Below are positions 27,812-44,971 of a stretch of DNA of 64,000 bases, piece after piece (position 1 is the first letter of the stretch; each line of letters starts with the position of its first letter). Origin of the DNA: Candidatus Omnitrophota bacterium (lineage in GTDB: Bacteria > Omnitrophota > Gorgyraeia > Zapsychrales > Zapsychraceae); contig JBFWOS010000002.1 of assembly GCA_050250375.1 (NCBI GenBank), positions 645,149 to 709,148 of the forward strand, in the 5' to 3' direction. A program made the translations under genes and the position numbers. The notes beneath the pieces were generated by a model that searched no databases, was not told the origin of the DNA, and saw only the letters and a program-made list of their open reading frames with translations.

Positions 27812-27930
27812 CTTATTAAACCGCAATTATACACCTTATCAGATATTCACGCAAGGCGGGTTTTGGAAGGAACGAGACAACCGTTCTTTTAGTGGAAAAA
27901 GGCTGGAAACCATCGCTTTAGGAGAAACGA
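27812..27930 (+). repeat. Intergenic direct repeat copy 1 (family of four)
   Basis: cttattaaaccgcaattatacaccttatcagatattcacgcaaggcgggttttggaagga...ttttagtggaaa.aggctggaaa...ttaggagaaacg. Aligned by eye to the copies at 31063, 37809 and 44869. Confidence 0.85.
27826..27854 (-). promoter_or_regulatory. Sigma70-like promoter inside repeat copy 1, reading toward miaB
   Basis: The minus strand reads TTGCGT-N17-TATAAT. The plus strand has acgcaa at 27849-27854 and attata at 27826-27831. Confidence 0.5.
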
Positions 27931-28396
27931 CTATTTTTCCAAAGTCTGAATGCAAACTTTTTTATTTGCGGAAGTTATCATATTTCAATTTTCAAAGTTA
28001 TTAAACGTAATTCAGGATATTGAAAACGGCACATCGACAATTAACATTTTTTTCCATTTGGCATAAGCTTTTTTATCAAAAGCATTATTCAAATTAAATT
28101 GAACGAATTGAAGATACTCATCCATGGAAAGCACGTGTTTTTCCTGTTTTGTTCCTTTGATAACCGGTAATTTGAAGTCGTCCACTATAGCGCCTCCAGA
28201 ATTTTATTATAAATTTCCTCTGTTCCGAATTTCAGGCATAATTCTTTAAATTTTTTATCCTTGAAATTAATATTATTGATTCTGATCAAATTAATAACAT
28301 CCGGTAAATCTTTGGTTAACCGTAATTTCGACCGAAGATCCGATAGCCATGAGTTTCTATGAAAACGAGCTTCTTATTTTGTTTTATATCAATCAC

Positions 28397-28825
28397 TTAT
28401 AATTCCGTCCTTTTGGTGTTCATCGGTTCATCTGCAGATGAAGGAGTACGAGTAATACGTAGCCAAATTAGTTTTCCAGAATATTTATCGCTGCCTAGTT
28501 CTTTCCTGAGCGATTTGCGCAACTCTGTTAGTAGAGCATCAAGATCAGCAGACTTTTGTGATACAAGTTCATTTACAAGTTTTTGTACAGAAACTATTTG
28601 TTTTTTATTCCCAAAAAGCTGAATATCTGAAACTGCCTGTTCAACATCATCTGCAACTTCATATATCCTTGGATGATGATTTGCCTTTGCAAGAGAACGG
28701 AAAACATCGACTAAATATTTTATTCTTTGTTCTCGTCGTTTATTTTCCCGATCACGCCATGCGGCAAACTGGTGTGAACACACAAGTGTTATTAAAGCTA
28801 CTACAATTGCCGGAATAGAAGTCAT
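28397..28825 (-). CDS. Hypothetical membrane-anchored protein
   Basis: 142 aa with one N-terminal transmembrane helix. No recognisable domain. Confidence 0.4.
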   Translation of the reverse strand: MTSIPAIVVALITLVCSHQFAAWRDRENKRREQRIKYLVDVFRSLAKANHHPRIYEVADDVEQAVSDIQLFGNKKQIVSVQKLVNELVSQKSADLDALLTELRKSLRKELGSDKYSGKLIWLRITRTPSSADEPMNTKRTEL

Positions 28826-28907
28826 GTTGATGTCTTGTCCAATGTTCTGTTTAATTAACTAATTTTTAAGAAAAGCATAACGGATTTTTAGCTCGACATT
28901 TTCTAAA

Positions 28908-29345
28908 TCAATCTTTCTTAAGAGCTTTTTCAAAATTTAAATTCTCAATATTTTGATTTATTCTTCCTCCCCAAAGATCTTTTCGCATTGCAATGACCGC
29001 CTGTTTATATGACTCAGGGGTTGGATCATTCAAGAAGTTATAACTTTTTAACAAAACATCATCTGAAGCATAAAGAATCATATTGTTCCATTCAGTTTTT
29101 AATTCTAAATATAGTCGCTCTTTTGAATTTAAGTCAGGTCTTTGAATTATAAGGAAATCTGACGAATCTTTATATTCCAGGTATCCATACATCAAAAGTA
29201 TGATGGCTTTATATCTCGTTTCTTTATATTGCTGCTTTTGTAGCGATACCGCTTTATTACGCTCCCAAATATTATTAAAGAAGGCGCCAATAATTCCTCC
29301 GATTCCAAGAAGGCTCAGTATTGGAATTATTTCGCTAATTATCAT
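28908..29345 (-). CDS. Hypothetical membrane-anchored protein
   Basis: 145 aa with N-terminal transmembrane helix IIPILSLLGIGGIIGAFF. No recognisable domain. Confidence 0.4.
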   Translation of the reverse strand: MIISEIIPILSLLGIGGIIGAFFNNIWERNKAVSLQKQQYKETRYKAIILLMYGYLEYKDSSDFLIIQRPDLNSKERLYLELKTEWNNMILYASDDVLLKSYNFLNDPTPESYKQAVIAMRKDLWGGRINQNIENLNFEKALKKD

Positions 29346-29462
29346 TATCGGTATCTCCGTTATCTCTAAATAGAATGTGCCCTATCAATTTCTGAGCAAT
29401 TTTCAGCATGGTCGTCCTTTTTCTTGCCCAATGGTCAGCCGAATGTCCATAGGTATATTTTT

Positions 29463-30302
29463 CTATTTCTTCCTTATCGTTTTTTCCGGCTGAGGCGGCA
29501 AGAAGTTATCCTTTGAAACAACTCTTTGCCCTGTTTTCTTCTCCAGATCTTTTCTTGCTTTTTTAGCAATGCCGCCGCCTTTTTTACCGGCAACTTTATT
29601 TTCCTCCATGCCGGTAGCCTGAACGCTTTCGGCAATTTGCCGTGTGGATAATTCTGCCAAGGCGGAAAAAATGAGTTCAGCCTCGGTCATATGATCGCGC
29701 AAATTTTGAGTCTTAAGACCTTTCATCTTTTTATGATCTTTGACGCTTAAATCAGACCATTCCTGATGGATGATATTGGTTAAAATGGCAAACTCGTCTT
29801 CCTTTTTGATTTCGTGGTCTTTCCAGTAATCTGTTAATTTATTGCGGGTCTCCTGGCCCATCATTCTCTGCTGAATCCACTTTTTGCTTCTGCCTTGTTT
29901 CTGCCAGTATTCACGCGAACGGTTAAGAGCTTTTTCAGGATCGGTTATTTCCTGCATTCTTTCATAGCCTACCTTTGCAAGCCATAATTTAATCGGTTCT
30001 GCTTTGGGGCTGGGGACAGATTGAACTAAACGAAGGATAGTTTCGACATCTGCGGTATCAGTCTTGTAGAATTTCCCATCACTGGACTGCATTTTCAGTT
30101 TGTCACATTTTGTGACAGACTCATTCCCTTCCTTTTTTAAACGGTTTTTAAGGGTAGTCCAATAGCTTTGCGCTTTTTTAAAATCTTTTTGTTCTATCAG
30201 AACCGCAATGATATCAATCACCGAAAAATACCAGGTATCGGTTTTCTCATCATAAATTCGACGAATTTTATAATTTTCGAACACTTCCAATGTGTTTTTC
30301 AT
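29463..30302 (-). CDS. DinD / Bro-N-like protein (DNA-damage-inducible protein D family)
   Basis: N-terminal Bro-N-like FENYKIRRIYDEKTDTWYFSVIDIIAVL. The C-terminal block KMKGLKTQNLRDHMTEAELIFSALAELSTRQI resembles E. coli DinD (KGLKKNQKILDHMGSTELAANLF...), compared from memory. Confidence 0.5.
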   Translation of the reverse strand: MKNTLEVFENYKIRRIYDEKTDTWYFSVIDIIAVLIEQKDFKKAQSYWTTLKNRLKKEGNESVTKCDKLKMQSSDGKFYKTDTADVETILRLVQSVPSPKAEPIKLWLAKVGYERMQEITDPEKALNRSREYWQKQGRSKKWIQQRMMGQETRNKLTDYWKDHEIKKEDEFAILTNIIHQEWSDLSVKDHKKMKGLKTQNLRDHMTEAELIFSALAELSTRQIAESVQATGMEENKVAGKKGGGIAKKARKDLEKKTGQRVVSKDNFLPPQPEKTIRKK

Positions 30303-30427
30303 TGCCTTATTTCCTGTTTAGATCTTACCATTTCGATATCTATAAACATTCTCACTAATTTCCAACACCGCTCATAAGTCTCACAAAGATTTTTTATTTG
30401 TACTTTGATCAATCATGGATCGTTCCG

Positions 30428-31084
30428 TTAATAACCCGAAAGACTTACGCCCTGTTGTTCAATCGTTTCCAATAAACCACGGACCCTGACCCGGCGCGCA
30501 TTGTCTTGACAGGTGGACATTACCGAATTGTAATACGCGGCCATTTCCTTATTATCCTTGGTCTTTTGGAAGATGGCGCGTCTTAAACCTTTGATTTTCG
30601 CAATCAGGTCTTCAGCATTGTAATCGCCGGGCAGGGGTTCGCTGTATTCCCCCAGTTTTTGCACGCAAGGCCGTAATGTCTCCTTGACCTTTTCGTCCCA
30701 CACATCAGACTCATCCTCAGAAAACCCGAGCTGCTTCAAACAATACTGCCTGTAATTTTTTAGGTCGCTGCAGTCTTTCGCCGTCAATGTTGTCACTTTT
30801 TTAACATAGTCGATGCATTGGCTGATGGATTGCCAGAGATTCAAATAATTGCAGGGCTTCAAAGACTTTTCTTCTTCAGCCAATTCCACGTAACACCAGC
30901 TGCGCTCTTCATCATCCTCGATGAGATCACACCGGTTCACCAGGCCGGCCTGCGCCCAGCTCAGGTGAGGCGTAAACAACAAAAATAAAATGGGTAACCC
31001 CGTCCAAAACGGCTGATATTTTACAGATTTTTTGTGTGTATCCATCATAGGGTTAATCCAACAAGGCTTCTTATTAAACGGCAA
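30428..31084 (-). CDS. Secreted cysteine-rich hypothetical protein; start probably the internal MMDTHKK
   Basis: Signal-peptide-like PILFLLFTPHLSWAQA and at least 8 Cys in about 180 aa. Confidence 0.45.
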   Translation of the reverse strand: MPFNKKPCWINPMMDTHKKSVKYQPFWTGLPILFLLFTPHLSWAQAGLVNRCDLIEDDEERSWCYVELAEEEKSLKPCNYLNLWQSISQCIDYVKKVTTLTAKDCSDLKNYRQYCLKQLGFSEDESDVWDEKVKETLRPCVQKLGEYSEPLPGDYNAEDLIAKIKGLRRAIFQKTKDNKEMAAYYNSVMSTCQDNARRVRVRGLLETIEQQGVSLSGY

Positions 31085-31197
31085 TTATACACCTTATCAG
31101 ATATTCACGCAAGGCGGGTTTTGGAAGGAATGAGACAACCGTTATTTTAGTGGAAACAGGCTGGAAAACATTGTTTTAGGAGAAACGGTACTTTTTT
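31063..31197 (+). repeat. Intergenic direct repeat copy 2
   Basis: The first ~70 nt (aaggcttcttattaaacggcaattatacacc...ggaaggaatg) are identical to copy 3. Confidence 0.85.
31084..31112 (-). promoter_or_regulatory. Sigma70-like promoter inside repeat copy 2, reading toward gene 30428-31084
   Basis: TTGCGT-N17-TATAAT on the minus strand (plus strand attata 31084-31089, acgcaa 31107-31112). Confidence 0.45.
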
Positions 31198-31245
31198 CCC
31201 AATATGTTATGACAAACTTTGGAAGTTGGTCAACGGTGGGTAGAA

Positions 31246-32058
31246 TCACCCAACATCATTGAGGAGTGACCAGTAAACGATGTGGTTCAACCATGATCGG
31301 GGAATTATCGGGTGTAGGTGATACAGCACCCGGTTGGAAAGTCCTGGAATGATGAGGGTGCGGCGTTTTTTCATGCCGTTGTAAGCTGTACGAACCAATT
31401 CAGAAGCCAAAGGCATTTGTCGATAACGTGCTTGACTATAGCTTCCATCAAAGGCCCTTTCCTGGAATTCTGATCGAAAACGCCCCGGACAAAAACTGCT
31501 TACGCAGACACCGGAATTTCGCAATTCATAGGCCAGAGATCTTGAAAATGATAACATACAGGCTTTGCTGGCGAAATATTCGGCTTCCAAAGGACCTGGC
31601 AAAAATGCGGCCATCGAAGCGACGTTTAAGATATGTCCGCTTTTTCTTTTTTTCATCTCCGGAATGAATACATGACATAATTCCATTGCGGTAATGACGT
31701 TGACCTGCATCATTTTATGGATTTGAGAAAAATCGCTTACTACAAATTCGCCAAAGGATCCAAATCCGGCATTGTTGACAAGAACGTCGACCGTAACGCC
31801 AGTGCTTTTGAGTTCCTGTGCAATTTCAAAGGATGCCCCGGGTTGGCTCAAATCTTTAACAAGAATTTCGACATTTAACTTGTTTTTAAGCAGAAGCTCC
31901 TGTTTTATCTCTTTCAGGCGCTCTTGACGACGGGCAATAAGAATCAGGTCGTGCCCTTTTTCTGCAAAAATGCGGGCTAAATCCAAACCCAACCCGCTGG
32001 ATGCTCCGGTTATTAGGGCCGTTTTACGCATAGGCCCTGAAATGAACAACTGTTTCAC
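31246..32058 (-). CDS. Short-chain dehydrogenase/reductase
   Basis: ALITGASSGLG Rossmann motif and YFASKA catalytic motif. Last gene of the PKS operon. Confidence 0.75.
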   Translation of the reverse strand: MKQLFISGPMRKTALITGASSGLGLDLARIFAEKGHDLILIARRQERLKEIKQELLLKNKLNVEILVKDLSQPGASFEIAQELKSTGVTVDVLVNNAGFGSFGEFVVSDFSQIHKMMQVNVITAMELCHVFIPEMKKRKSGHILNVASMAAFLPGPLEAEYFASKACMLSFSRSLAYELRNSGVCVSSFCPGRFRSEFQERAFDGSYSQARYRQMPLASELVRTAYNGMKKRRTLIIPGLSNRVLYHLHPIIPRSWLNHIVYWSLLNDVG

Positions 32059-32791
32059 TCATATACGTGAACATCTCGATATTTTTCAGGCCGCAGTTTT
32101 CGAGAATTGTTTTCAATTCCTCCGGCGGCGGAAAACATTTATTTGATTCCGGAAGATATTGAAAAGAATTAAACTCTCCCCGATGAAAAATATGTTTTCC
32201 CAAAAAAGGCAATACATTCTCAAAGTAAGCCCGGTAAAGAAACGTTTTGACCGGGCCCGTTGGCTTGCCTAAATCAATGATGTTTATGACTCCCCCGGGT
32301 TTGACAACCCGTTTCATTTCTTTGATGCCTTGAACAGGGTCCATTAAATTGCGTAGTCCATAACTCATAAAGACCGCATCAAACATCTTATCTTCAAATT
32401 TTAGCGCTTGAGCATCGGAAATTTTAAACTCAATACTGCTGTTTGCTTTGGCCCTCATCTGTGCGATATCGAGCATTTTCTCGGCGACATCAACGCCGAT
32501 GACATGAGAGCGGGGAAATATTTCTGCAATCAAAAAAGCGATATCCCCTGTTCCGGTGCAAATGTCCAGAACAAGATCGCCGTTTTGAATCCCCGAACAT
32601 CGCACCGCATGTGTTTTGTAGCGGTCTTGCAGGCCGAACGTCAGCACTTGATTCAGAGTGTCGTATTTTGGAGCAAGGCCGTTAAAAAATTTACGGTTAT
32701 ATTCGGCCCAGTTTTTTGCTGTAAAATATTTGCGAAAACCCACCTGATCGATCAATTTGTTTTTATCCATTAGATCAAACGACGTATTCAT
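32024..32791 (-). CDS. Class I SAM-dependent methyltransferase, UbiE/MenG-like
   Basis: LDICTGTGDIA motif I and PGGVINIID post-motif. Overlaps its neighbours on both sides. Confidence 0.8.
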   Translation of the reverse strand: MNTSFDLMDKNKLIDQVGFRKYFTAKNWAEYNRKFFNGLAPKYDTLNQVLTFGLQDRYKTHAVRCSGIQNGDLVLDICTGTGDIAFLIAEIFPRSHVIGVDVAEKMLDIAQMRAKANSSIEFKISDAQALKFEDKMFDAVFMSYGLRNLMDPVQGIKEMKRVVKPGGVINIIDLGKPTGPVKTFLYRAYFENVLPFLGKHIFHRGEFNSFQYLPESNKCFPPPEELKTILENCGLKNIEMFTYMSETVVHFRAYA

Positions 32792-33878
32792 ACTGTTTCT
32801 CTCCTTTCACCTGATTTTTTACTTTTGCGTCCTGCCATTCGGCCAAGCAACCGAACGCTGTCAACCCGGCACCAAATGCAAAGATACCGACCTGATCGCT
32901 GTCTTGGCATGTATTTTGTGCCAGGATATCTTTGAGGACATACAACACACTCGGGGACGACATGTTTCCGTAACGGGCGAGTACCGAACGTGAATAATCA
33001 AACGTATCCGGTTCAAACGGGTGGATTGATTCAATCGCATCAAGAATCGCACGTCCTCCCGGATGAACGGCAAGATAATCAAGATCCAATGTAAAATCTC
33101 GCGTTAATTTTTTATAAACCTGATAAAAAGCGGAAGCGGCTAATCCCGGGACCTCTTTTTTTAAGACATTCATTAAGCGGCCATTTTTTGTCACGTAGCG
33201 CAGGTCATCACGGTATTGCGGCCAAAGGATGGACTGGAATTCTTTGATCAGCAAACCGGTTGAGCGTTCTTTGTTTGTCATTAGGCAGGCCGCCGCTCCG
33301 TCACCAAAAATGGAATTGGAAATGATCAAGTCAAGATTTTCGCTCCAATATGATGTTGCTGTACAAATCTCCACCGCTAAGACAATGACATTGGCATGCG
33401 GGTGAGTGTTGAGATACTGCCAGGCCGATTTCATTCCCGGTACGGCCGCCCCGCAACCTGTTCCAACTATATCAAGCGCGTAAATATTTTCTTTTAATCC
33501 GGCGGCCTGGGAAATATAAGAAGTCAATCCCGGGCAAAGGTAACCTGTGCAAGTCGTAATGACAATACCGTCAATGTCATCTGGAATCAGTCCTGTTTGA
33601 TCAAGTAAACGTCTGACGGCCTCTGTTCCAAGTTTAGTCGCCTGAACCTGAAAACGATGGATGGCCTCGTCCTGAGTTTCCTCAAATAATTTTTCCGGCT
33701 CATCATCAATAGCCACATAGCGGGTATGTATGGACGGCTCGGCAAGAAATTTGCTGTAAAGCCGTTTTTCCTTCTTAGAACGCAACGGTGAGTTAAGGAT
33801 TCGCTCAAGAATAGCTTTTTGAGTTAACTTCAGAGGCGGGTTAGCGGTGGCAATATCGACCAATTTAACGGAAACCAT
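32775..33878 (-). CDS. Type III polyketide synthase (chalcone/stilbene synthase superfamily)
   Basis: Active-site region ITTCTGYLCPGLTSY resembles bacterial RppA-type TSCTGFMMPSLTA. C-terminal FAFGAGLTAFG approximates the GFGPGLT motif. 367 aa. Confidence 0.78.
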   Translation of the reverse strand: MVSVKLVDIATANPPLKLTQKAILERILNSPLRSKKEKRLYSKFLAEPSIHTRYVAIDDEPEKLFEETQDEAIHRFQVQATKLGTEAVRRLLDQTGLIPDDIDGIVITTCTGYLCPGLTSYISQAAGLKENIYALDIVGTGCGAAVPGMKSAWQYLNTHPHANVIVLAVEICTATSYWSENLDLIISNSIFGDGAAACLMTNKERSTGLLIKEFQSILWPQYRDDLRYVTKNGRLMNVLKKEVPGLAASAFYQVYKKLTRDFTLDLDYLAVHPGGRAILDAIESIHPFEPDTFDYSRSVLARYGNMSSPSVLYVLKDILAQNTCQDSDQVGIFAFGAGLTAFGCLAEWQDAKVKNQVKGEKQYEYVV

Positions 33879-35037
33879 AAGGACTCCTTTGCGACGTAAA
33901 AGCAGATGATTGATGAAATGTGTTAAATAAACTGTTTATATTTTTCTCGCGCCACTTAAGCACGCGGATAATCATGTTAGATGCATTCTTGTCGTGGCCG
34001 ATTGACCCGATCATTTTTGATAAACGGATCGGCCAGGCAAAACGACGTTTGAATGTTTTTTCATAAACACGGGCTACGGATGACCGGTCAACCTCCCCCG
34101 GACGGGTAGAACCGAGCAGGCCTCCTAAAAGGATGCCGCTATTTAAAGCCAAAGAAATGCCGCCTCCTGCAACAGGATGAATCAAAGCCGCAGCGTCACC
34201 GACATAAAAGGCGTTTCCATCGAAAAACCGGCTGCGGCGATTCATATCAACGAAAATCCCCTTCCATGGGCTGAGCAGACGGGACGAACCCATCTGCCGG
34301 CTTAAACACGGATTGGAGGAAAGTAAGTGAGACCAAATATTTTCGTACTTCCCCTTCAGCTGTTTAAAAAGAGAACCTTTAATGACATAACAGACGTTTA
34401 CGGCATTATTTTCAAAACGGTTAATGCCGACATGTCCCCGATCGATAAAGTGCATAATCACATCACTGCCCATATTTTGGCACGAATCAAACAGGCCAAA
34501 GACGCCAAACAACCGTGATGGGGAATTCTGTAATCCGGTTTCAGGAATGCCGCCATTGGCATAAATAAGATGCCGGACTTTGATGTCGTTTTGTATTGCA
34601 GCCTTTGATTTGGTAAGTGTCAATTGACACATCTGTGGCGTATGAACGATGTTTTTCGCCACGCACGCATCTTCAAAGATAACTCCCAAGCTTTTGGCTT
34701 TTTGAACCATGATGTCATCTAAAGATTTGCGGCTGAACCCTAAACCTGAATGGGAATTACTGTCGGTAAGTAATGGCACCCGGATGAATTGTCCATTGGA
34801 CGCACTTAAATGGACGTGTGTCACTTCCAGGGCCCCTTTCTCCATGATTTCGTCAAGGATACCGTAACGCACAAAGATAGACCTATTCTCAGGGCCAATA
34901 AAACCTCCGCACACTTTGTCTCTCGGAAAAGATGATTTTTCGATTAAAACGACTTTCCATCCTTTCGATGCCAACTCCATCGATGTCGCGAGCCCTGCCG
35001 GGCCGGCACCAATAATAGCCGCGTCGTAATAGTTCAT
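33865..35037 (-). CDS. FAD-dependent oxidoreductase/monooxygenase (geranylgeranyl-reductase-like)
   Basis: AAIIGAGPAGLATSMEL dinucleotide-binding motif and a GG-reductase-like core. Confidence 0.75.
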   Translation of the reverse strand: MNYYDAAIIGAGPAGLATSMELASKGWKVVLIEKSSFPRDKVCGGFIGPENRSIFVRYGILDEIMEKGALEVTHVHLSASNGQFIRVPLLTDSNSHSGLGFSRKSLDDIMVQKAKSLGVIFEDACVAKNIVHTPQMCQLTLTKSKAAIQNDIKVRHLIYANGGIPETGLQNSPSRLFGVFGLFDSCQNMGSDVIMHFIDRGHVGINRFENNAVNVCYVIKGSLFKQLKGKYENIWSHLLSSNPCLSRQMGSSRLLSPWKGIFVDMNRRSRFFDGNAFYVGDAAALIHPVAGGGISLALNSGILLGGLLGSTRPGEVDRSSVARVYEKTFKRRFAWPIRLSKMIGSIGHDKNASNMIIRVLKWREKNINSLFNTFHQSSAFTSQRSPYGFR

Positions 35038-35624: not shown

Positions 35625-35776
35625 GGTGGTCCTCCTTAAAGGGATAGTATGCCTGAGTAAATCCAACAAATCACCCGGAGAATAGCGATCGGCCTGAAAA
35701 AACAATGAAAAAAATGTCACTGGAAGGAAGAATCCCGCAAATTTTTGCAGGGTGACGTTCAGGAGAGAATTTTTGT

Positions 35777-37634: not shown

Positions 37635-37808
37635 AAAGAATTAGAATCATTTTTGTATTAGAGGGATACAATTGGCCTTAATTAATTCCCTGCTCGATTG
37701 GCGCTTCAGTGATATTTTCTTTTACTATTCTTTTTTGCAACCATCGGGCGCACATCTTCACAATAAAAATTGCTTTTTCGGGTGTGTCGTTCATAGGGGC
37801 AATTCACG

Positions 37809-37933
37809 AAGGCTTCTTATTAAACGGCAATTATACACCTTATCAGATATTCACGCAAGGCGGGTTTTGGAAGGAATGTTAAGACCGTTATTTTAGTGGA
37901 AACAGACTGGAAAGTATTTATTTAAGAGAAACG
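37809..37933 (+). repeat. Intergenic direct repeat copy 3
   Basis: See copy 2. Lies in the divergent region between the HK gene and the EPS operon. Confidence 0.85.
37830..37858 (-). promoter_or_regulatory. Sigma70-like promoter inside repeat copy 3, reading toward the HK/RR/PKS genes
   Basis: TTGCGT-N17-TATAAT on the minus strand (plus strand attata 37830-37835, acgcaa 37853-37858). Confidence 0.45.
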
Positions 37934-38069
37934 ACTTTCCTGTCCCGCGTAAAGCCTGACAAGACTGCCAATCCACATTAACCCGAGTTAATGTTTCTTT
38001 AATCTTAATTTAATACACAATCTGTTAATATCTCGCAAGGGTTGAGCATTACTCGGAAGGTGTAGGCCT

Positions 38070-38762
38070 ATGAGACAAAAAATTCGGATGTGGCCTTGGA
38101 TGATTGTCGGGATACTGATTGTGGTTGATACCTATCTGGTCTTTGAAACGACGCATACATTCTATAAACACTATCATATAGGCCGGCGTCTTTATGATGA
38201 AGGGAAATATTCCCAGGCCCTGCCTCATCTTTTAGGAGCTTATCGTATGAGCCCGGAGAACAAAAATGTTGGCTGGAAACTGATTTCGGCTTTCCAGCAG
38301 CTTGGACGGGAAGCCGAAGCGCGCCGTGTTCTCGAAAGACTGAGTGCCCGGACTTCGGTAAACCTTGAAGCCATCGAGCAATTGGGCGACATGTCGTATT
38401 CGACGAAGGCATATTCCCTGGCACGCCACCAATATTATCGAATACTACTGCGTAAACCATCTGATGAAATCCGAAAAAAGTATGCCTTGGCGCTTTTCGC
38501 GGAAGAAAACTATGTTGCGGCCCTTCAGCAAATGGACATTCTTTTGGCAAAAAAATCAGATGATTTTGATCTCCGTTTTCAACACGCACAAATCATTGCA
38601 GCTTTGGGAGATCATGATCGGGCGAGTCGCGAACTCAATTCATTAAGGGATGATGGGTACACAAAAAAAGAGGCGCTCATTTTGCTGGCGGACCAGCTCC
38701 GCCATCTCGGACGGGAAGAAGAAGCAATAAAAATATATCGGGAGGTATTCAATGAAAGCTAA
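38070..38762 (+). CDS. TPR-repeat protein with N-terminal transmembrane anchor
   Basis: One transmembrane helix (WMIVGILIVV) then TPR-like helical repeats. Its C-terminal about 130 aa is paralogous to the C-terminus of the next gene. Confidence 0.6.
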   Translation: MRQKIRMWPWMIVGILIVVDTYLVFETTHTFYKHYHIGRRLYDEGKYSQALPHLLGAYRMSPENKNVGWKLISAFQQLGREAEARRVLERLSARTSVNLEAIEQLGDMSYSTKAYSLARHQYYRILLRKPSDEIRKKYALALFAEENYVAALQQMDILLAKKSDDFDLRFQHAQIIAALGDHDRASRELNSLRDDGYTKKEALILLADQLRHLGREEEAIKIYREVFNES

Positions 38763-39651
38763 CAGGGCATGGATTGCCGCTGTATCTTCGATCTTTCTAA
38801 TTTTGACCGATTCCGTATCGTTCGGTGAAACAGATCTTACAGTCGAAGACCGGGCAAAGATGGGAGAAATTTATAGTCTGGAACGGCTTCAAAGATACGA
38901 TGAGGTAAAACCGCTTATCGCGGCGCTGCGCAGTCGATATCCTGAGAACAGCGAGATCAAATGGACGCAGGCGCGCATCCTGGGGTTCAGCGGGAGTTGG
39001 GAAGAAGCATCGGGCATTTTTGATGAGTTATGTGCCGATGAGTGTGAAAAAGAAATTGTCGTAACCTACGGGCACATCCTTGAATCGCAGGGCTCCAATC
39101 CCGGAACTTTGTCGCACATCAAGAAATTGGTGGACAGATATCCCGATTATGAAAAACTTCAGTCGATCTATATACAAATTTTATCCTGGAACGGCCAAAA
39201 CCCGGAAGGACGTGCTGCTCTCGAGAAACTCCATGAACAATTCCCGGAAGACCTTAAAATTATCGCTGCCTTGGGAGACGCTGCGTACGCCGCTGAAAAA
39301 TATACGCTTGCAGAGAAATATTATAGACATTTCCTGAGCCAGGAAATGTCTCCGGACGTTCACAATAAGTTCATCAATACACTGATTAGTCAGAAAAAGC
39401 ATGTGGAAGCGATTGAGGAAATGGATCGTTTGCTTCTCGAGGATCCGCAAAATCCGGATTTGCGCCATCAGTATGCCAGGGTCCTCTCCACCGCGGGAAA
39501 GCATGAAGAGGCCGTCAGTGAGTTAAAGACGTTGTTGCAGGAAGGCTATCAGAAAAAAGAGGCGCTGGTCCTGCTTGGCGATGAGCTTCGTTTATTGGGA
39601 CGCAATGATGAAGCTCTAAAGGTCTATCGCGAGGTTACAAATGCGGATTAA
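38752..39651 (+). CDS. Secreted TPR-repeat protein
   Basis: Signal peptide. The N-terminal domain (LTVEDRAKMGEIYSLERLQRYDE...) is paralogous to the N-terminus of 39641-41566. The C-terminus is paralogous to 38070-38762. Confidence 0.6.
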   Translation: MKANRAWIAAVSSIFLILTDSVSFGETDLTVEDRAKMGEIYSLERLQRYDEVKPLIAALRSRYPENSEIKWTQARILGFSGSWEEASGIFDELCADECEKEIVVTYGHILESQGSNPGTLSHIKKLVDRYPDYEKLQSIYIQILSWNGQNPEGRAALEKLHEQFPEDLKIIAALGDAAYAAEKYTLAEKYYRHFLSQEMSPDVHNKFINTLISQKKHVEAIEEMDRLLLEDPQNPDLRHQYARVLSTAGKHEEAVSELKTLLQEGYQKKEALVLLGDELRLLGRNDEALKVYREVTNAD

Positions 39652-41566
39652 ATGGCCGTTCGTGTTACCTTTATTGCTGATCGCCGGGGTTGCATCAAAG
39701 GCCTACGGGGCCAGCCCTCCCCTCACGCTTGAGGATCGCGCCAAAATCGGAGAAATTTACACTCTGGAGGATCTGAAACAGTACGATGACGCCTTACCGC
39801 TGATCGAGGATCTCATGGATCGGTATCCCGATGACAGGGAGGTTCAGCGGACCTATGTGCGGATCGTTGGATTTGGAGGAGACTGGGAACGGGCCGCGGA
39901 AGTTATGGAGACCCTGTGTGTGGAGCACTGCGATGACCAAATTGTCGAAACATACGGACATATCCTTGAGGCACAAGGCCCAAATCCGGATACACTGGTC
40001 GAGATGGAAAGACTCCTTGAGCGGTACCCTCAGAATCCTGAGCTTAAATCCATTTATGCGGACATGTCTACCTGGAATCAATCATCGAACGCACAGTCGG
40101 CGACTGTTAATACCCCTCAGGATGGTCAGGTCGATTTGAATGATGTTCAAATTCTTGTCGAGCAGAATAGGCATGAGGAAGCTCTGGACTTGATTGAGCG
40201 TTACCTGGACACCTCCCCAGAAGATGAATCGGCGCTCCTGTGGAAAGCTCGCGTCCTGAGCTGGTACGGGAAACGAATTCCTGCTATTCGGGTGTATCAG
40301 GAACTAATACAGGCCGATCCAGACAACATCACGTATTATCGAGAATGCGCACGTGTTATGGGATGGGCCGGAAATTATTATAATTCGAGCAAGATTTATC
40401 AGAAGGCGATCGAACGTTTTCCTGATCACGCAGGCCTTAAGGCCGAGGCCGCCGCAAAAAACGCCTATTATCACGGTAAATTCCTTCAGGCTGAAGAAAA
40501 CTACCGTAATTGGTTGGAGATAGAGTCGGGTAACCCCGAGGCTCTTTTTGATTTGGGGCAGATCCACGCGCGCAGCCGGCGCTTCTCGGCTACCCAGATG
40601 GACTATGCGGAACTGTTCGAGAGATATCCGAGCATCGATGAAGCCCGTTCTGCCCGTGATAAGGCCGATTTGTACGCACATGGTTGGATGACGGAATCCG
40701 GATTTACGCGCTATGAGGCGGACAGCGAATCCCGGCAGGCGGACGTACGGTTGAATCAGATTTTTACACAATTCGAAAAGATGATTCTCGGGAACATGTG
40801 GGTCGGGATACGGACCGAGGATCTGGATTATTTCTTCAACGATACGGATGCTGAGATCAGCCGTCAACGCTATTCGGCCTGGCTGGGACAAGGTTTCTCT
40901 CCTACGACATATTGGCAGGCGGGATTCGGAATCAGTAAATCTTCCGATGGGCTCAAGGACCTTTATTATCCCCATGCGCAAGTTCAGCTGCCTTTCATAT
41001 CTGAGAAATTTTTATGGAATCTTTCCTATAAACAAGACGATATCATCCAAAATTCAGACACGATCATCAGCACCCTGCAAGCCGATGAATATCGCGTGCG
41101 TGGGACATACAAGCCGTTTAAATTTATCGAAATCGGTGGTGATGAAAGTATTGCCCTATACTCCGATGACAATGAGCGGGAGATGTTCGGCGGCGACGCA
41201 GCATGGATTATGCTGCATGAACCCATGCGTTTGGTGGCGAAATATCGTTGGCAAAATACCCAATATGATCAGATCAATCCGGATTATTTCTCACCGGATG
41301 ACTTCGTATCCAAACGGGCTTCGCTGGAATGGCAGCATTACCTCAATAAGCGCAATTTATATTGGGGAGCAAATCAAACTTGGTACCGGCTGAAATATGA
41401 ATACGTTATGAATCCAAGTGATATTAATCATGTGATTACGGCCGGACTCAACCTGGAGTTGAGTAAAAGGTTGATATTAAAAGTTGAAGCCCAACGCACT
41501 TTGCACGAAGACCAGGATATATATAAAGAAAACATAGGAACGGCTTCGGTATTCTTCATTTTTTAG
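39641..41566 (+). CDS. Outer-membrane exopolysaccharide export protein, BcsC/PgaA-like: TPR N-terminus plus C-terminal beta-barrel
   Basis: Signal peptide, TPR region, then an about 300 aa C-terminal region with alternating aromatic/hydrophobic pattern ending in F (…ASVFFIF), as expected for an outer-membrane beta-barrel. Confidence 0.6.
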   Translation: MRIKWPFVLPLLLIAGVASKAYGASPPLTLEDRAKIGEIYTLEDLKQYDDALPLIEDLMDRYPDDREVQRTYVRIVGFGGDWERAAEVMETLCVEHCDDQIVETYGHILEAQGPNPDTLVEMERLLERYPQNPELKSIYADMSTWNQSSNAQSATVNTPQDGQVDLNDVQILVEQNRHEEALDLIERYLDTSPEDESALLWKARVLSWYGKRIPAIRVYQELIQADPDNITYYRECARVMGWAGNYYNSSKIYQKAIERFPDHAGLKAEAAAKNAYYHGKFLQAEENYRNWLEIESGNPEALFDLGQIHARSRRFSATQMDYAELFERYPSIDEARSARDKADLYAHGWMTESGFTRYEADSESRQADVRLNQIFTQFEKMILGNMWVGIRTEDLDYFFNDTDAEISRQRYSAWLGQGFSPTTYWQAGFGISKSSDGLKDLYYPHAQVQLPFISEKFLWNLSYKQDDIIQNSDTIISTLQADEYRVRGTYKPFKFIEIGGDESIALYSDDNEREMFGGDAAWIMLHEPMRLVAKYRWQNTQYDQINPDYFSPDDFVSKRASLEWQHYLNKRNLYWGANQTWYRLKYEYVMNPSDINHVITAGLNLELSKRLILKVEAQRTLHEDQDIYKENIGTASVFFIF

Positions 41567-41585
41567 GGTACATGGGAGAGATGCC

Positions 41586-43121
41586 ATGAAATATAATAAG
41601 AAAATAATTCTTCAGACCAGACCCTCAAAGGCCTTAGTCGTAATTTTGCTGGTATCCCTCGTTATTTATGTCATTATTCGCACACTATATCTTTGGTTTG
41701 CCATGGGCACGAAGTTGGAAATGGTTTTAGCCTGGATTTTTCTGGGTGCGGAATTATTCATCATGATTCACGCCATCGGATATTATTTGAATGTATTGAG
41801 GGCAAACTCCCCTTCGCATTATCCAAAGATAGCCGATGAGGAACCATCTATTGCTGTCCTGATCCCCGCCCGGCACGAACCCAGTGATGTAATCGAACAG
41901 ACACTTCTGGCTTGCTATAATCTGGACTACGAGAATAAATCCATTTATTTGCTGGATGACTCCTCCATCGTATCCTACAAACAAGAGGCAAATAGGATCG
42001 CCGAGCAGTTTGGTTCAGTCGTGTTTTCCAGGGATGAACATCGCGGAGCCAAGGCCGGTATCATCAATGATTGTTGCCGCACTTTAAGTGAAAAATATGT
42101 TGCCATACTGGATGCCGATCAGAACCCCATGCCGCATTTTTTAAAGGCCCTGGTGCCGTACCTGCAGCAGGATGAAAATCTGGCCTTCGTACAAAGTCCG
42201 CAATTCTATACCAATTGCTCCGTCAACAGTGTTGCGATGACGTCAAATTACCAACAAGGTATATTTTACGAATATATTTGCGAAGGAAAAAGCCGTAACG
42301 GAGCGATGATGTGCTGCGGAACAAATGTTCTGATGCGAAGAGCGGCTCTTGAGGACATCGGGGGCTTTGACGAAAAAACTGTGACCGAGGACTTTGCCAC
42401 CTCCCTTCGCTTGCATCTTAAGGGATGGAATACACTGTACATTAATAACCCCCTGGTTTTCGGTATGGCGCCACAAGATCTGATCGCGTATTTCAAACAG
42501 CAGTCACGCTGGTCAATGGGAAACACTCAGGTTTTTAAAAGCGTGATCAGGGCTTTCTTTACCCAGCCGTTCAGGCTGACAACCCGACAATGGTTTGAAT
42601 ATTTTATTACGGGTACTTATTATTTTATTGCCTGGGCCTATTTATTTTTGTTTGCCTTTCAGTTGATTTTCACTTTCTTAAATGTGCCGTCATTTTTTAT
42701 GGATCCCTATGTATACACGACCACGTTCATCCCGTATTTCCTGTTGGCCCTTGCTGTATTTTATTCCAGCATGGGATTGCGCCACTATGCGTTTTCAAAT
42801 ATCCTTAAAACTCACCTTTTGACGATTTTATCCATACCAGTTTACCTGAGAACAACACTGCTTGGGTTAATAAACATTCACAGCAAGTTTCAGGTTACGC
42901 CCAAGACGGGATCCACACGAGTGCCGTATAGGTTGTTATGGGGGCAGATATTTTTCTGGGTCTTGAATCTTATTGCGATGACATGGGGTATTTTAAGATG
43001 GATTTATGAAAGGAATATGGGAATCCTTTTTAACGTGTTCTGGCTCTTTGTTCACGCAATTGTTTTTTCATCGATATTCTATTTTAACGAAAATGAATGG
43101 GTGCAGGAGCAGGAGATATGA
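41586..43121 (+). CDS. Processive family-2 glycosyltransferase, cellulose-synthase/PgaC-like, no PilZ domain
   Basis: DxD motifs (YLLDDSS, ILDADQNP), TED motif (TEDFATS) and QQSRW (QxxRW). Flanked by N- and C-terminal transmembrane helices. Confidence 0.8.
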   Translation: MKYNKKIILQTRPSKALVVILLVSLVIYVIIRTLYLWFAMGTKLEMVLAWIFLGAELFIMIHAIGYYLNVLRANSPSHYPKIADEEPSIAVLIPARHEPSDVIEQTLLACYNLDYENKSIYLLDDSSIVSYKQEANRIAEQFGSVVFSRDEHRGAKAGIINDCCRTLSEKYVAILDADQNPMPHFLKALVPYLQQDENLAFVQSPQFYTNCSVNSVAMTSNYQQGIFYEYICEGKSRNGAMMCCGTNVLMRRAALEDIGGFDEKTVTEDFATSLRLHLKGWNTLYINNPLVFGMAPQDLIAYFKQQSRWSMGNTQVFKSVIRAFFTQPFRLTTRQWFEYFITGTYYFIAWAYLFLFAFQLIFTFLNVPSFFMDPYVYTTTFIPYFLLALAVFYSSMGLRHYAFSNILKTHLLTILSIPVYLRTTLLGLINIHSKFQVTPKTGSTRVPYRLLWGQIFFWVLNLIAMTWGILRWIYERNMGILFNVFWLFVHAIVFSSIFYFNENEWVQEQEI

Positions 43122-44248
43122 AGCCGATTATTTATTTATTGCTTGTCGTATTCGGGGTCTTTTTTCTGGTGGCCTGGATGCTTTCCGCGCTGACAAAAGA
43201 TGAGGCCTTTGTGCGACTGGAAGAAGGCTGGCGTGGATACAAGAATATTTTTGTTCAACCGGACGGAAAGGTATATCGAATCGAGGAAGAGGATGTTACT
43301 TCTGAAGGCCAGGCGAACGCCATGCTTCGCGCTGTCATCATGGATGATCAGGAGACCTTTGGGCGGATCTTAACTTGGACACAGAATAACCTGTCACGCA
43401 AAGACCGCGAGGGAGATTACTTGTTGTCGTGGTACTATAAAAATGGTGCCGTTCAGGATTCCATGCCGGCCGCTGATGCAGATATCGAATATGCCCTTGC
43501 GCTACTGCTGGCGTCACGAAAATGGGATGACGGTACCTATGCGGAGACGGCGTTGTTGGTACTCAAGGATATCCTGGACCGGCTGACAGTCGTGTTTCGA
43601 GGACGCCGCTATCTATTGCCGTGGATCATCCAGGACCCCGCTGATCAGGAGAGAATTCCTCAGAATCTCTCCTACTATTCCCCGTCTTTTTTTAAATTTT
43701 TCTACGAGTATGACCGGGATCCACGTTGGCTGGAACTTGTGGATACCACTTATGATCTTTTACTGCAAGCCCAAAAGGAATTTGACGGAATGCAGGGTTG
43801 CGGAGTAGTGCCGGATTGGAGTAAAGTCGACCATCAAGGTAAGCTTCATGCCTATGAGGGAAAATCCAGCAATTTTTCCTGGGAAGCGGTGAGAGTACCC
43901 ATGCGTGTCGGCATCGATGCTTTTTTATTTCGTGACCCCCGGGCCATTGAAGTGTTGTCCGGATTCGTCAAGTTTGCCGAAACGCAGTTAAACGAAACTG
44001 GAAAACTTGTCAGCAAGTACAGTTATGATTGTAAGCCCCTTTCAACACCGGAAAGCCCGCTCATGTTTTCGTCTATCTACATCGCCATGGAATTGACCAA
44101 TAGTCCGCAGGCTTCGTCTGTATGGGAAAGGCTGTCGCAATGGTTTCACCGGAGCCGGAAAGGCGGATATTACGAGGACCCGCGTAAGTATTATACGAAC
44201 AGTCTCGTATGGGTTGCAGACTTCTTATATATGGAGAAAGCGCAATGA
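43097..44248 (+). CDS. Glycoside hydrolase family 8 (BcsZ-like endoglucanase)
   Basis: GH8 signature AADADIEYALALLLASRKW. N-terminal transmembrane anchor or signal peptide. Confidence 0.78.
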   Translation: MGAGAGDMKPIIYLLLVVFGVFFLVAWMLSALTKDEAFVRLEEGWRGYKNIFVQPDGKVYRIEEEDVTSEGQANAMLRAVIMDDQETFGRILTWTQNNLSRKDREGDYLLSWYYKNGAVQDSMPAADADIEYALALLLASRKWDDGTYAETALLVLKDILDRLTVVFRGRRYLLPWIIQDPADQERIPQNLSYYSPSFFKFFYEYDRDPRWLELVDTTYDLLLQAQKEFDGMQGCGVVPDWSKVDHQGKLHAYEGKSSNFSWEAVRVPMRVGIDAFLFRDPRAIEVLSGFVKFAETQLNETGKLVSKYSYDCKPLSTPESPLMFSSIYIAMELTNSPQASSVWERLSQWFHRSRKGGYYEDPRKYYTNSLVWVADFLYMEKAQ

Positions 44249-44478
44249 GTAGTGATGAAATGATGTCAACGCTGGAGGAAATCCGCAAAATCGAAGGGGC
44301 TATCTCACTTTACTTAGGGCATATAAGGAATACACTGAATTTCTCTGGCTTTGATAAGGCGCTGCTAAATGATGTTGAAAAACGTCTTGCCTCTATACAT
44401 AGGGAAAGCCAAGAACAGAATATTTCTCTTAAGTATTTAATTGAAGAAATTAAGAAAGGAAACCGGAATGTTTACTAA
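44245..44478 (+). CDS. Small hypothetical protein, translationally coupled to the GH8 gene
   Basis: ATGA overlap with the GH8 stop. 77 aa with no known motif. Confidence 0.35.
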   Translation: MSSDEMMSTLEEIRKIEGAISLYLGHIRNTLNFSGFDKALLNDVEKRLASIHRESQEQNISLKYLIEEIKKGNRNVY

Positions 44479-44803
44479 TGAGATCTACAGCGAATATTTT
44501 CACGAGATATATCTTAAAAAGAAGAAAAAACTTAAATTGCTCTGCTTTTTGTCGGAACAAATTCTGGACGATGCTGTTGGAAAAGTCCTGGCCCGATTCT
44601 TGGAACAGGACATACGGCATGTGTTATTGCTGGAAGAATTGCTGGCATCGGTAGCCCCCCAAGAACGGTCTGAGGCTTATAGCGCTGAAGATACGACCGA
44701 AGAAAGCAGTTTACTTCTATTGGAGGATATTAAACGTATCCTGCAGAATAAAAAAGCTCAAGAGCCACGGTTTTCTCCATGGTATATGCGGGAAGAGCGG
44801 TAG
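44468..44803 (+). CDS. Small acidic hypothetical protein
   Basis: Start at MFTNEIY, overlapping the previous stop. No known motif. Confidence 0.35.
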   Translation: MFTNEIYSEYFHEIYLKKKKKLKLLCFLSEQILDDAVGKVLARFLEQDIRHVLLLEELLASVAPQERSEAYSAEDTTEESSLLLLEDIKRILQNKKAQEPRFSPWYMREER

Positions 44804-44868
44804 TGATATAGCCTTGCTTGAGTAAGCGGTCATCCATAGGTTTTAAAGACTTTTTTTGCAGGAGACTT

Positions 44869-44968
44869 TTACAAATTATCGGATATTCACGTAAGGCGGG
44901 TTTTGGAAGGAATGATTGGATCGTTATTTTAGTGGAAACAGGCTGGAAAATATCGCCTAGGAGAAACG
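44869..44968 (+). repeat. Intergenic direct repeat copy 4, the most diverged
   Basis: acaaattatcggatattcacgtaaggcgggttttggaaggaatg...ttttagtggaaacaggctggaaaa...taggagaaacg. The -10 element is degenerate (TAAAAG). Confidence 0.8.
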
Positions 44969-44971
44969 ATG

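Follow-up and report, generated by a model that had tools for sequence, protein, structure and literature searches.

A repeated, promoter-like intergenic module borders three unrelated gene cassettes 5' of miaB in an Omnitrophota genome

The window, that is, the whole 64-kb stretch of Omnitrophota DNA analysed here, contains a 160-170 nt module in four copies of the same orientation, which a direct-repeat search grouped into a single family. The copies, all found on the plus strand as repeats and listed below on the minus strand, on which their promoter hexamers read, border three unrelated gene blocks of different G+C content, giving n+1 repeats for n blocks. The features of the locus are as follows.

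26286-27671, minus strand: miaB, with Radical_SAM, UPF0004 and TRAM domains (start at 27668 in the NCBI annotation)
27700-27734, minus strand: conserved hairpin within the 5' UTR of miaB, flanked by module copy 1 and the ribosome-binding site of the gene
27770-27932, minus strand: module copy 1, 5' of miaB; predicted promoter core 27826-27866 (-10 TATAAT 27826-27831, -35 TTGCGT 27849-27854, CCAAAACCCGCC 27855-27866)
27933-31027, minus strand: cassette 1, 37.9% G+C
31028-31197, minus strand: module copy 2, bordered by the SDR stop (31246) and the gene for the 206-aa secreted protein; predicted -10 31084-31089, -35 31107-31112
31198-37773, minus strand: cassette 2, 43.9% G+C
37774-37938, minus strand: module copy 3, between the HK operon (minus strand) and the TPR/EPS operon (plus strand); predicted -10 37830-37835, -35 37853-37858
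37939-44809, plus strand: cassette 3, 46.2% G+C; three TPR proteins, GT2 (cellulose-synthase-like), GH8 and two small ORFs
44810-44980, minus strand: module copy 4, adjoining the DUF2200 stop codon (44972-44974); decayed hexamers TTACGT 44889-44894 and TAAAAG 44866-44871, left arm strongly diverged
44972-45367, minus strand: DUF2200 gene, its last codons overlapping module copy 4
52487-54193, minus strand: Thioredoxin_2-like 540-aa gene, with a 64% identical ortholog in genome L030, 9 kb upstream of miaB

Cassette 1 encodes proteins of 57, 142 and 145 aa, a BRO-N/phrog_15286 protein (29463-30302) and a 206-aa Cys-rich secreted protein (30428-31048). Cassette 2 comprises HK (36312-37634), RR (35777-36331), YceI, FAD monooxygenase, type III PKS (32775-33878), UbiE methyltransferase and SDR (31246-32058) genes, and cassette 3 is transcribed away from copy 3. 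This gene content agrees with that in a preliminary description of the locus, which gave a DinD-like gene with small transmembrane proteins, the type III PKS operon with its two-component system, and the cellulose-synthase-like EPS operon. The miaB gene is a conserved anchor, since synteny with relatives holds on its left and ends at its 5' end, and the Thioredoxin_2-like gene is probably the far anchor of the variable locus.

The repeat search, k-mer counts and nhmmer all agree on four direct copies in one orientation, as first described. The repeat search placed the copies at 27770-27929, 31028-31187, 37774-37933 and 44810-44969, and identity to copy 2 in it was 81% for copy 1, 100% for copy 2 itself, 88% for copy 3 and 63% for copy 4. 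The 26-mer TTCACGCAAGGCGGGTTTTGGAAGGA (0-1 mismatch) and the 23-mer TTTTAGTGGAAACAGGCTGGAAA each occur four times, all on the plus strand and never outside the four copies, with 0 occurrences expected in shuffles. An nhmmer profile of the four copies matched only those four in the window (E 1e-43 to 1e-52), and no further copies were found in its remaining 47 kb or in the 9 kb beyond it (73 kb read in all). The module edges are sharp homology borders. Coordinates given earlier covered the core; the homology reaches about 25-40 nt further left, as far as about 27786, 31044, 37790 and 44826, and a conserved CTATG start-codon region falls within it. Over 70 nt, as estimated earlier, copies 2 and 3 do not differ.

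Two variable blocks per module had also been recognized before, and the clustering of variable columns bears them out (permutation p ~2.5e-4). The module consists of conserved blocks alternating with near-random blocks of 9-10 nt, a pattern that speaks for constraint and against recent copying. Read on the miaB strand, copies 1-3 give CCAAAACCCGCC-TTGCGT-N17-TATAAT, so both hexamers of a sigma70-type promoter, with a spacer in the 16-18 nt range, are present upstream of a gene start. As already noted for this locus, the hexamers lie on the minus strand and copy 4 is degraded (TTACGT-N17-TAAAAG). The hexamers of copy 1 precede miaB by about 150 nt. In copies 1-3 the -10 is followed by a short conserved leader that contains an ATG; copies 2 and 3 have this conserved ATG 29 nt downstream of the predicted start, and the ATG (31048) of the 206-aa secreted-protein gene falls within copy 2. 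It should be noted that calling this promoter near-perfect was an overstatement, as the -35 TTGCGT matches TTGACA at 3/6 positions, only TTG, and a consensus promoter scan did not call it. Matches to 9/12 promoter positions occur in the region at about the frequency expected by chance. Judged from their sequence, the copies may nevertheless act as promoters. Copy 4 has lost the hexamers and has no gene to drive, yet blocks B and C are kept perfectly, which is unexpected under a purely promoter-related constraint.

A structured RNA on one strand (an sRNA, riboswitch or leader) might also be conserved and intergenic, as the module is, and the short leader with its ATG 3' of the -10 in copies 1-3 fits such an RNA. 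However, no Rfam family matched the window at gathering thresholds (copy 2 reached only E = 9.9), fold z-scores ranged from -0.96 to +1.57 over both strands, and RNAalifold energies were weak with 0-1 compensatory pairs. An inverted-repeat search of all four copies found no terminal or internal inverted repeat conserved across them, and the conserved sequence is for the most part upstream of the predicted transcription start. The check for conserved RNA structure suggested in the preliminary description thus came out negative, and we give this reading an almost negligible probability.

The promoter core is shared beyond this genome. The sequence CCCGCCTTG-N20-TATAAT(T) also occurs in two other Omnitrophota genomes (L030 and L017), 5' of miaB and of unrelated small genes, and a near match lies in a third.

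L030:9728: exact CCCGCCTTG-N20-TATAAT, upstream of miaB
L030:9307: exact CCCGCCTTG-N20-TATAAT, upstream of a 78-aa gene
L017:3166: exact CCCGCCTTG-N20-TATAAT, upstream of a 78-aa gene
L017:1097: exact CCCGCCTTG-N20-TATAAT, upstream of a 174-aa secreted protein
L015:7099: 14/15 match, with CCCAAACCCCCACCTTG

All of these sites lie at most 10 kb upstream of miaB and point in the same direction as miaB. No further sites were found in 242 kb scanned; the clade sequence covered, about 250 kb, came almost entirely from around miaB or the PKS operon. About 5e-4 exact matches would be expected by chance, and because the cross-lineage pattern was set after L030:9728 had been seen, only the other three exact matches are independent. 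Between lineages the spacer differs (CGTGAATATCTGATAAGGTG versus TTTAAATCCGGTGAAACCGC), whereas the TTG of the -35, TATAAT(T) at the -10, the spacing of 17 nt and the neighbouring CCAAAnCCCGCC motif are kept. Hexamers, spacing and flanking motif held in place while the spacer drifts are what one would expect of a promoter under selection. The relatives have a version of the element of their own, ~135 nt long and repeated within the locus, and in them it heads the 78-aa gene in two different neighbourhoods. It lies upstream of miaB only, with no copies in conserved regions. In the closest relatives (L012, L013 and L025) no module was found within the short upstream stretches present. Of the two readings put forward at the outset, a portable promoter module and serial insertions beside miaB, the first gains support from this conservation upstream of miaB and of unrelated genes; taken together, the two are supported in part.

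The upstream blocks may bind a factor, judging from their sub-repeats. TGGAAA sites had been described as one helical turn apart, and a pair 11 nt apart is indeed present, in a block conserved at 25-28/28 nt; three TGGAAA / TTTTAGnGGAAAC sub-repeats are spaced at 26 and 29 nt. The module could then be the operator of a local regulon, its sub-repeats bound by the RR (REC and Fis-type HTH) or by the BRO-N protein, with miaB, the secreted protein and the PKS operon co-regulated. Conserved blocks between randomised spacers are consistent with such an operator, as is the RR gene within cassette 2. However, the orthologous HK-RR-PKS operons of L020 and L022 have no such motif upstream, and L017 and L030 have the promoter core but no RR or BRO-N gene in the locus. 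In addition, the upstream blocks vary between lineages and do not match any known motif for this RR family. A response-regulator operator, as proposed earlier, finds no support, the orthologous PKS operons of distant relatives being without the module, and we consider it distinctly unlikely.

The module is also short, intergenic, multi-copy and block-structured, as a genome-wide dispersed repeat of the REP/BIME, Correia or MITE kind sampled four times here would be, and contigs are broken inside it by the assembler (L006 and L027). By a rough estimate, four copies within a 17-kb span of the 64-kb window are only weakly non-random (p ~0.07). Against this, every copy has one orientation, none lies in the rest of the DNA read, and in relatives copies are confined to the DNA upstream of miaB. 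Terminal inverted repeats, target duplications and palindromic structure are all absent from the module. Searches of GTDB representative genomes, JGI metagenomes, IMG/VR, plasmids and phages (the source genome not among them) returned chance 19-mers only. On the DNA covered, 73 kb of it from the source genome, a dispersed repeat is highly improbable. The module corresponds to no known RNA and no known mobile element. Promoter-bearing dispersed repeats such as the Neisseria Correia elements are ~100-160 bp long and can give a neighbouring gene an outward promoter, as the module is proposed to do. Correia elements, however, end in inverted repeats, duplicate a TA target and number in the hundreds; the module has no terminal inverted repeats or TA duplications and, in the 73 kb read, does not occur in hundreds of copies.

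The 5' side of miaB is a hypervariable insertion hotspot in relatives. Gene content there is different in every relative examined, large serine recombinases abut miaB on this side in L012 and L013, and L017 retains a displaced miaB 5' remnant. The four copies could accordingly be attachment-site scars (attL, hybrid and attR) of three islands serially integrated at the miaB promoter region, with the integrase lost or encoded elsewhere and the promoter-likeness being the target restored by each island. The n+1 same-orientation copies for n cassettes, their sharp borders, arm similarity staggered about an identical core, and the low G+C content (37.9%) and phage-type BRO-N protein of cassette 1 are consistent with this reading. 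So is the hotspot, and dusA-type islands likewise enter a tRNA-modification gene at its 5' end, restoring promoter and 5' end to it (PMC4482086). A DusA-specific tyrosine integrase and 21-bp semiconserved flanking repeats characterize those islands, and the MiaB-like rimO is also given as an island target (Farrugia et al. 2015, PMC4482086). Mobile DNA at miaB in L012, L013, L025 and L017 resembles them in entering the 5' end of a tRNA-modification gene, displacing the original 5' end to the far side and resupplying promoter and 5' end. However, the relatives have large serine recombinases, and the window has 160-nt repeats upstream of an intact miaB and no integrase. No integrase, recombinase or excisionase was found by Pfam and PHROGs searches of the cassette ORFs and of 54.9-64 kb, or in the annotation of the 9 kb beyond the window. 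Moreover, the recombinase junction in relatives lies within miaB codons 7-12, outside the module, and serine recombinases do not produce long direct repeats. Cross-lineage conservation tracks hexamers and spacing rather than a contiguous core site, and in relatives the element stands at the head of genes, for instance the 78-aa gene in its two neighbourhoods. Among relatives, each of which has different DNA at the locus, no site was seen that is empty but for one module, and no circular junction was observed. The earlier idea of serial insertions beside miaB therefore stands in general terms only, through the hotspot, the serine recombinases, the miaB remnant and the suggestively mosaic copies described below, and not as to the target, a nearby integrase or a single-copy empty site. 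We regard attachment-site scars as possible but not likely.

Tandem att-bounded islands, at tRNA/tmRNA genes, as composite SCC at rlmH or as Prochlorococcus tycheposons, usually have repeats made up of 15-60 bp from the target gene, with an integrase retained by one island or more. The present locus is similar in its n+1 direct repeats for n islands by a conserved gene, in islands of differing composition and in seemingly hybrid junction repeats. It differs in that the repeat is a predicted promoter region and no integrase is present.

The module copies share an identical core of 50-57 nt. On the left side of the identical run copy 1 is the one that differs (11 sites versus 1), and on the right side copy 3 (8 sites versus 4; left/right contrast, Fisher p = 0.009). 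This three-sequence test tells only which copy diverges on each side, and differing local constraints could give the same result; the copies are suggestively mosaic around the core, compatible with recombination through the module. The common core makes the module copies likely joints for cassette addition or exchange, and such a recombination route may have operated here.

Taken together, the evidence gives about an even chance to a clade-specific promoter module that is reused at the heads of accessory transcription units in a hotspot and is probably also a joint for cassette recombination. The module would be a promoter region of the sigma70 type, belonging to one family with the native miaB promoter, laid out as ~75 nt of upstream blocks, CCAAAACCCGCC-TTGCGT-N17-TATAAT and a short leader with a start codon, and reused in the hypervariable locus between miaB and the thioredoxin-like gene. 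The genes driven would be miaB for copy 1, the cassette of the 206-aa secreted protein for copy 2 and the HK/RR/type III PKS operon for copy 3, and copy 4 would be a decaying copy left behind at the distal border. Each cassette may have arrived with its own module copy, the crossovers being due to homologous recombination or to a recombinase whose gene lies elsewhere. Cassettes joined through modules would leave n+1 copies for n cassettes and staggered arm similarity.

Omnitrophota are uncultured, and to our knowledge almost nothing has been established about their promoters or their acquisition of accessory genes. The locus provides a candidate promoter architecture for the clade, CCAAAnCCCGCC-TTGnnn-N17-TATAATT, and marks the 5' side of miaB as a recurrent insertion hotspot. 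One reused control module appears to head a housekeeping tRNA-modification gene (miaB), a secreted protein and a type III PKS operon, and borders a fourth block, the exopolysaccharide operon. If the module is also a recombination joint, it would offer a small genome a simple way to plug in and express foreign operons; if not, the locus is an ordinary though clean case of promoter reuse in a genomic island. JUMPstart/ops elements, which lie in the transcribed leader of accessory polysaccharide, haemolysin and pilus operons and act via RfaH, are likewise short conserved non-coding elements that head unrelated, horizontally acquired operons under a shared control input. However, it is the predicted promoter and its upstream region that are conserved here, and no cofactor is known.

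More speculatively, the miaB-proximal locus may be an integron-like platform for operon capture without a linked integrase, a proposal that we think unlikely. Units would travel with the ~160-bp promoter module, the invariant 50-nt core would serve as the recombination site (for a recombinase elsewhere or RecA), and each insertion would supply expression signals and leave n+1 modules. Integron attC sites and the ~120-bp direct repeats of Vibrio cholerae (VCR) resemble the locus in their same-orientation repeats of ~120-160 bp, conserved ends, variable inner blocks and successive cassettes by a fixed platform. However, the present cassettes are operons of 3-7 kb, each with an orientation of its own, and the predicted promoter lies within the repeat itself. 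No intI or tyrosine recombinase gene was found in the 73 kb. Attention to attC-type dyad symmetry gave no significant fold on either strand (RNA parameters) and no long internal inverted repeat, and no GTTRRRY core was seen on reading the module sequence.

In distant relatives the PKS operon lies at unrelated loci without the module, so it was relocated to the present locus. A 38-aa remnant ORF in cassette 2 (37678-37794) resembles the N-terminus of the AAA_23 gene that precedes HK in relatives.

Four direct copies of one repeat family, the module, were recovered by a repeat search of the 64-kb window.

27770-27929, + strand, module copy 1
31028-31187, + strand, module copy 2
37774-37933, + strand, module copy 3
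44810-44969, + strand, module copy 4

Two long core words each occur exactly four times, all on the + strand, and none would be expected in shuffles; the four-copy direct repeat of the preliminary description is thus real. The limits first drawn for the copies covered the core but were too short on the left, where homology continues to a conserved CTATG that on the - strand provides a start codon, after which the first codons are alike (MMDTH, MNDTP, MNTH, and MDD). The identity of copies 2 and 3 over 70 nt was also borne out. Logan contigs from the same sample as the window are broken inside copies 1 and 3, so the assembler sees the repeat too, and the assemblies of that sample yielded no alternative junctions.

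The module did not fall into any of the familiar classes that we considered. A profile built from the four copies detected no further copy in the window or in the 9 kb past its right end. In GTDB representative genomes, JGI metagenomes, and IMG/VR, from which the source genome is absent, the core 19-mer gave only chance-level matches of 19-21 nt in unrelated phyla, and a BLAST search with copy 2 against plasmid and phage collections gave no match. A MITE or attC identity was rejected because the copies lack consistent inverted repeats. On the 73 kb of the source genome covered, it is very improbable that these four copies belong to a dispersed REP/MITE-like repeat. On neither strand was the fold of the module more stable than that of shuffled sequences (z from -0.96 to +1.57), and consensus folding of the copies on both strands gave weak energies with 0-1 compensatory pairs. 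There was no Rfam match at gathering thresholds over the whole window, nor in an E-value scan of copy 2. The conserved RNA structure considered at first found no support, as neither structure nor covariation appeared when single copies or their alignment were folded, and we regard a structured RNA as extremely unlikely. No tRNA or tmRNA target lies within the window, and readings as sigma54, sigma32, dif/Xer, IHF, or DGR (A-to-N) elements did not fit when compared by eye with consensus sequences.

Within the module, conserved blocks alternate with two short, almost randomised blocks.

Blocks of the module, their lengths, and differences between copies
Block A, 57 nt, 0-1 differences (copies 1-3)
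Variable block 1, 9 nt, 4-6 differences in most pairs
Block B, 28 nt, 0-3 differences
Variable block 2, 10 nt, 3-6 differences
Block C, 10 nt, 0-1 differences

The variable columns are significantly clustered (p about 2.5e-4), a sequence pattern which indicates that the copies are old and the blocks constrained, and which contradicts a fresh duplication. Within blocks B and C, a direct repeat of 21 nt (AACCGTTATTTTAGTGGAAAC / AAACATTGTTTTAGGAGAAAC) recurs with a period of 29-30 nt, and block A holds a third, weaker copy of it. A 13-mer of block B (TTTTAGTGGAAAC) is also present at 56769-56781 (- strand), within an AAA ATPase ORF (56496-57218), where it encodes RFSGNG before the Walker B motif; with an nhmmer E of 0.64, this match was judged probably due to chance and was rejected as a further module site.

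On the - strand, block A of copies 1-3 reads CCAAAACCCGCC-TTGCGT-N17-TATAAT, and the corresponding hexamers of copy 4 are TTACGT-N17-TAAAAG. The claim of a near-perfect sigma70 promoter was too strong, because the -35 hexamer agrees with the consensus in TTG only and a generic promoter scan made no call. Copy 4 may be a decaying distal copy. Its perfectly kept blocks B and C are unexplained by promoter function alone, which leaves room for a role as a DNA site in recombination or factor binding.

Related loci, reached via MiaB homologues, provided a comparison across lineages. In L030 (GCA_020632495.1; MiaB 71% identical), the region upstream of miaB is alignable to block A: TCCAAATCCCGCCTTG and TATAATTG are kept, and the hexamers are 17 nt apart as in the window, with a different spacer sequence. 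The pattern CCCGCCTTG-N20-TATAAT was searched over all the loci compared (242 kb); since it was defined after the site at L030:9728 had been seen, only the three other exact matches are independent.

L030:9307, exact match, upstream of a 78-aa gene
L017:3166, exact match in a second related locus, upstream of the orthologue of that 78-aa gene, which here has other neighbours
L017:1097, exact match, upstream of a 174-aa secreted protein
L015:7099, match in a third related locus when two mismatches are allowed, with CCCAAACCCCCACCTTG also kept

All matches are in miaB orientation and lie <=10 kb upstream of miaB, and the pattern is absent from the rest of the 242 kb scanned and from IMG/VR. By our own calculation, ~5e-4 exact matches would be expected by chance. 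Kept hexamers, spacing, and adjoining motif with a drifting spacer are the expected product of purifying selection on a putative promoter. The relatives also own a long version of the module, ~135 nt in length (identity is 77% between L030b and L017b, and 64% between L017a and either of these), in which TCGT ~69 nt upstream of CCCGCC, with CAGCCT.TTCC between them, weakly suggests a roughly similar layout.

The copies delimit three cassettes, whose gene contents are as first described.

Cassettes between the module copies
27933-31027, - strand, cassette 1: BRO-N/phrog_15286 protein, small proteins, 206-aa Cys-rich secreted protein; G+C 37.9%
31198-37773, - strand, cassette 2: HK, RR (REC + HTH_8), YceI, FAD monooxygenase, type III PKS, UbiE methyltransferase, SDR; G+C 43.9%
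37939-44809, + strand (opposite to the other cassettes), cassette 3: three TPR proteins, GT2, GH8; G+C 46.2%

The conserved left flank has a G+C of 47.1%. The HK-RR-YceI-FAD-PKS-methyltransferase operon of cassette 2 is also found in distant Omnitrophota at unrelated loci (HK 46-49% identity), where a 180-aa AAA_23 gene precedes HK. At 37678-37794 (- strand), a 38-aa ORF (MNDTPEKAIFIVKMCARWLQKR...) directly abuts copy 3 and is similar to the N-terminal residues (MIHTLKLCARH...) of the 180-aa AAA_23 protein encoded before HK in L020 and L022, two of the compared sequences; it is probably a truncated AAA_23 remnant at the cassette 2 border. The module is absent upstream of the orthologous HK operons in distant relatives, and this, together with their placement at unrelated loci and the putative remnant at copy 3, argues that cassette 2 moved into the miaB locus. 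Upstream of the AAA_23-HK-PKS operon, L020:1-270 and L022:9170-9300 contain inverted runs of GGTGATG/CATCACC heptamer-like repeats, which are unrelated to the module. The cassettes themselves encode a response regulator and a BRO-N protein for which the module could be an operator, and a response-regulator site had been proposed in the preliminary description; the relatives, with their module-free HK operons, give no support to an operator, which we consider distinctly improbable.

The locus on the 5' side of miaB behaves as an insertion hotspot. Left of miaB, the window shows excellent synteny with relatives (nadA, hydrolase, MetW-like, and Suf genes), which ends at the miaB 5' end. The related loci L012 (MiaB 90% identical) and L013 (MiaB 85% identical) each have, adjoining miaB, a gene for a large serine recombinase (Resolvase + Recombinase + Zn_ribbon_recom).

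L012:3054-4718, recombinase gene, running up to or into the miaB start; neighbour, TraG/VirD4-like gene
L013:1183-2862, recombinase gene, running up to or into the miaB start; neighbour, HTH_17 gene

DNA homology between the closest relatives and the window stops 19 nt inside miaB (27652-27671), starting only at ...TTGAAACCTAYGGYTGYCAAATG (MiaB codons ~7-12, ETYGCQMN motif), and another relative (L025:1-330; MiaB 89%) also diverges upstream of codon ~8. These junctions suggest that the 5' end of miaB contains an attB for integrative elements. The behaviour of the locus resembles that of dusA islands, which insert at the 5' end of a tRNA-modification gene and resupply the 5' end and promoter (PMC4482086). 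The module copies, as direct repeats bordering cassettes, could likewise be pure att scars of site-specific integration. We think this unlikely, as the relatives' recombinase junction lies in miaB codons 7-12, the conservation pattern of the module is promoter-like, and, in line with the first inspection, no integrase or transposase was found in the cassettes, the right part of the window, or the 9 kb beyond.

L017:6314-6414 holds a displaced miaB 5' remnant (UTR hairpin and 11 codons, ending ...GAAACCTATGGCTG) that is 81% identical to window 27637-27734 and lies 3.6 kb upstream of the functional miaB, with Fic and AHSA1 genes between them, and is suggestive of a far junction left by an old insertion. 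L015, L017, and L030 each have different genes upstream of miaB. The only gene right of miaB common to the window and a relative is a thioredoxin_2-like 540-aa gene (52487-54193), which lies 25 kb from miaB in the window and 9 kb from it in L030 (L030:1-985; 64% identity), in the same orientation. It is probably the far anchor or edge of a variable, replaceable region of 9-25 kb. Just upstream of the miaB ribosome-binding site, a 13-bp hairpin (27700-27734, - strand) is common to the window, the L017 remnant, and L015, with five compensatory base-pair changes among them, and it may be a cis-regulatory or insulating structure. A 40-aa ORF (27668-27790, - strand) starts in module copy 1 and ends with a TGA that overlaps the ATG of miaB. 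Its last residues, PRFQQKPWRK, are similar to the region annotated as the MiaB N-terminus in L030 (L030:9940-10000; VRFQQKRTVFVETYGC), which suggests that the miaB N-terminus varies by indels or in frame from lineage to lineage.

We give a roughly even chance to the reading that the module is a clade-specific promoter region of the native miaB promoter family, which has been reused in front of accessory transcription units within the hypervariable miaB-thioredoxin locus, with the identical core as the likely joint at which cassettes are added or swapped. Copies 1-3 share a 50-nt identical run, and the arms around it are related in a staggered fashion. Left of the run, copy 1 stands apart from the matching copies 2 and 3 at 11 sites, against 1 site of the opposite kind; right of it, copy 3 stands apart from the matching copies 1 and 2 at 8 sites, against 4 of the opposite kind (Fisher p = 0.009), a three-sequence test that shows only which copy diverges on each side and whose pattern could be mimicked by differing local constraints. 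Staggered arms would be expected if every cassette had come with a module of its own and been inserted through a crossover within the core. Copy 2 would then consist of the left arm of cassette 1's module and the right arm of cassette 2's module, and likewise along the array. An integron-like capture of operons by a promoter module is rather improbable. Promoter reuse and repeat-bounded islands are already known; what is unusual is the combination, in which a 160-nt block-structured module, a predicted promoter conserved across candidate-phylum lineages, marks the borders of operon-sized cassettes at a non-tRNA hotspot without a linked recombinase.

Several other features of the window were recorded. 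The DUF2200 protein (44972-45367), whose last 5 residues extend into module copy 4, is about 80% identical to Chryseobacterium, Enterococcus, and Peregrinibacteria proteins, which reflects either recent horizontal spread or an unusually high level of cross-phylum conservation and makes the protein unsuitable for tracing relatives. A 54-nt perfect palindrome (AAAAAGGTGACGGACACCGTTTTTCAATATAAAAACGGTGTCCGTCACCTTTTT) that looks like a bidirectional terminator occurs in two identical copies, 12.4 kb apart, at 50624-50677 and 63004-63057, and is also present at L028:11139 in another compared sequence. Between the two copies in the window lies a segment that includes a block of low G+C (38.7%, 54.2-60.2 kb) carrying T5orf172, AAA_15/AAA_21, and DUF2971 genes. 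A 32-nt repeat is present at three places in the left part of the window (17419-17450, 19812-19843, and 23143-23174), and the same part holds two paralogous bAvd/23S_rRNA_IVP-type four-helix-bundle genes (19529-19882 and 22860-23213), a gene type that recurs in the relatives' syntenic regions.
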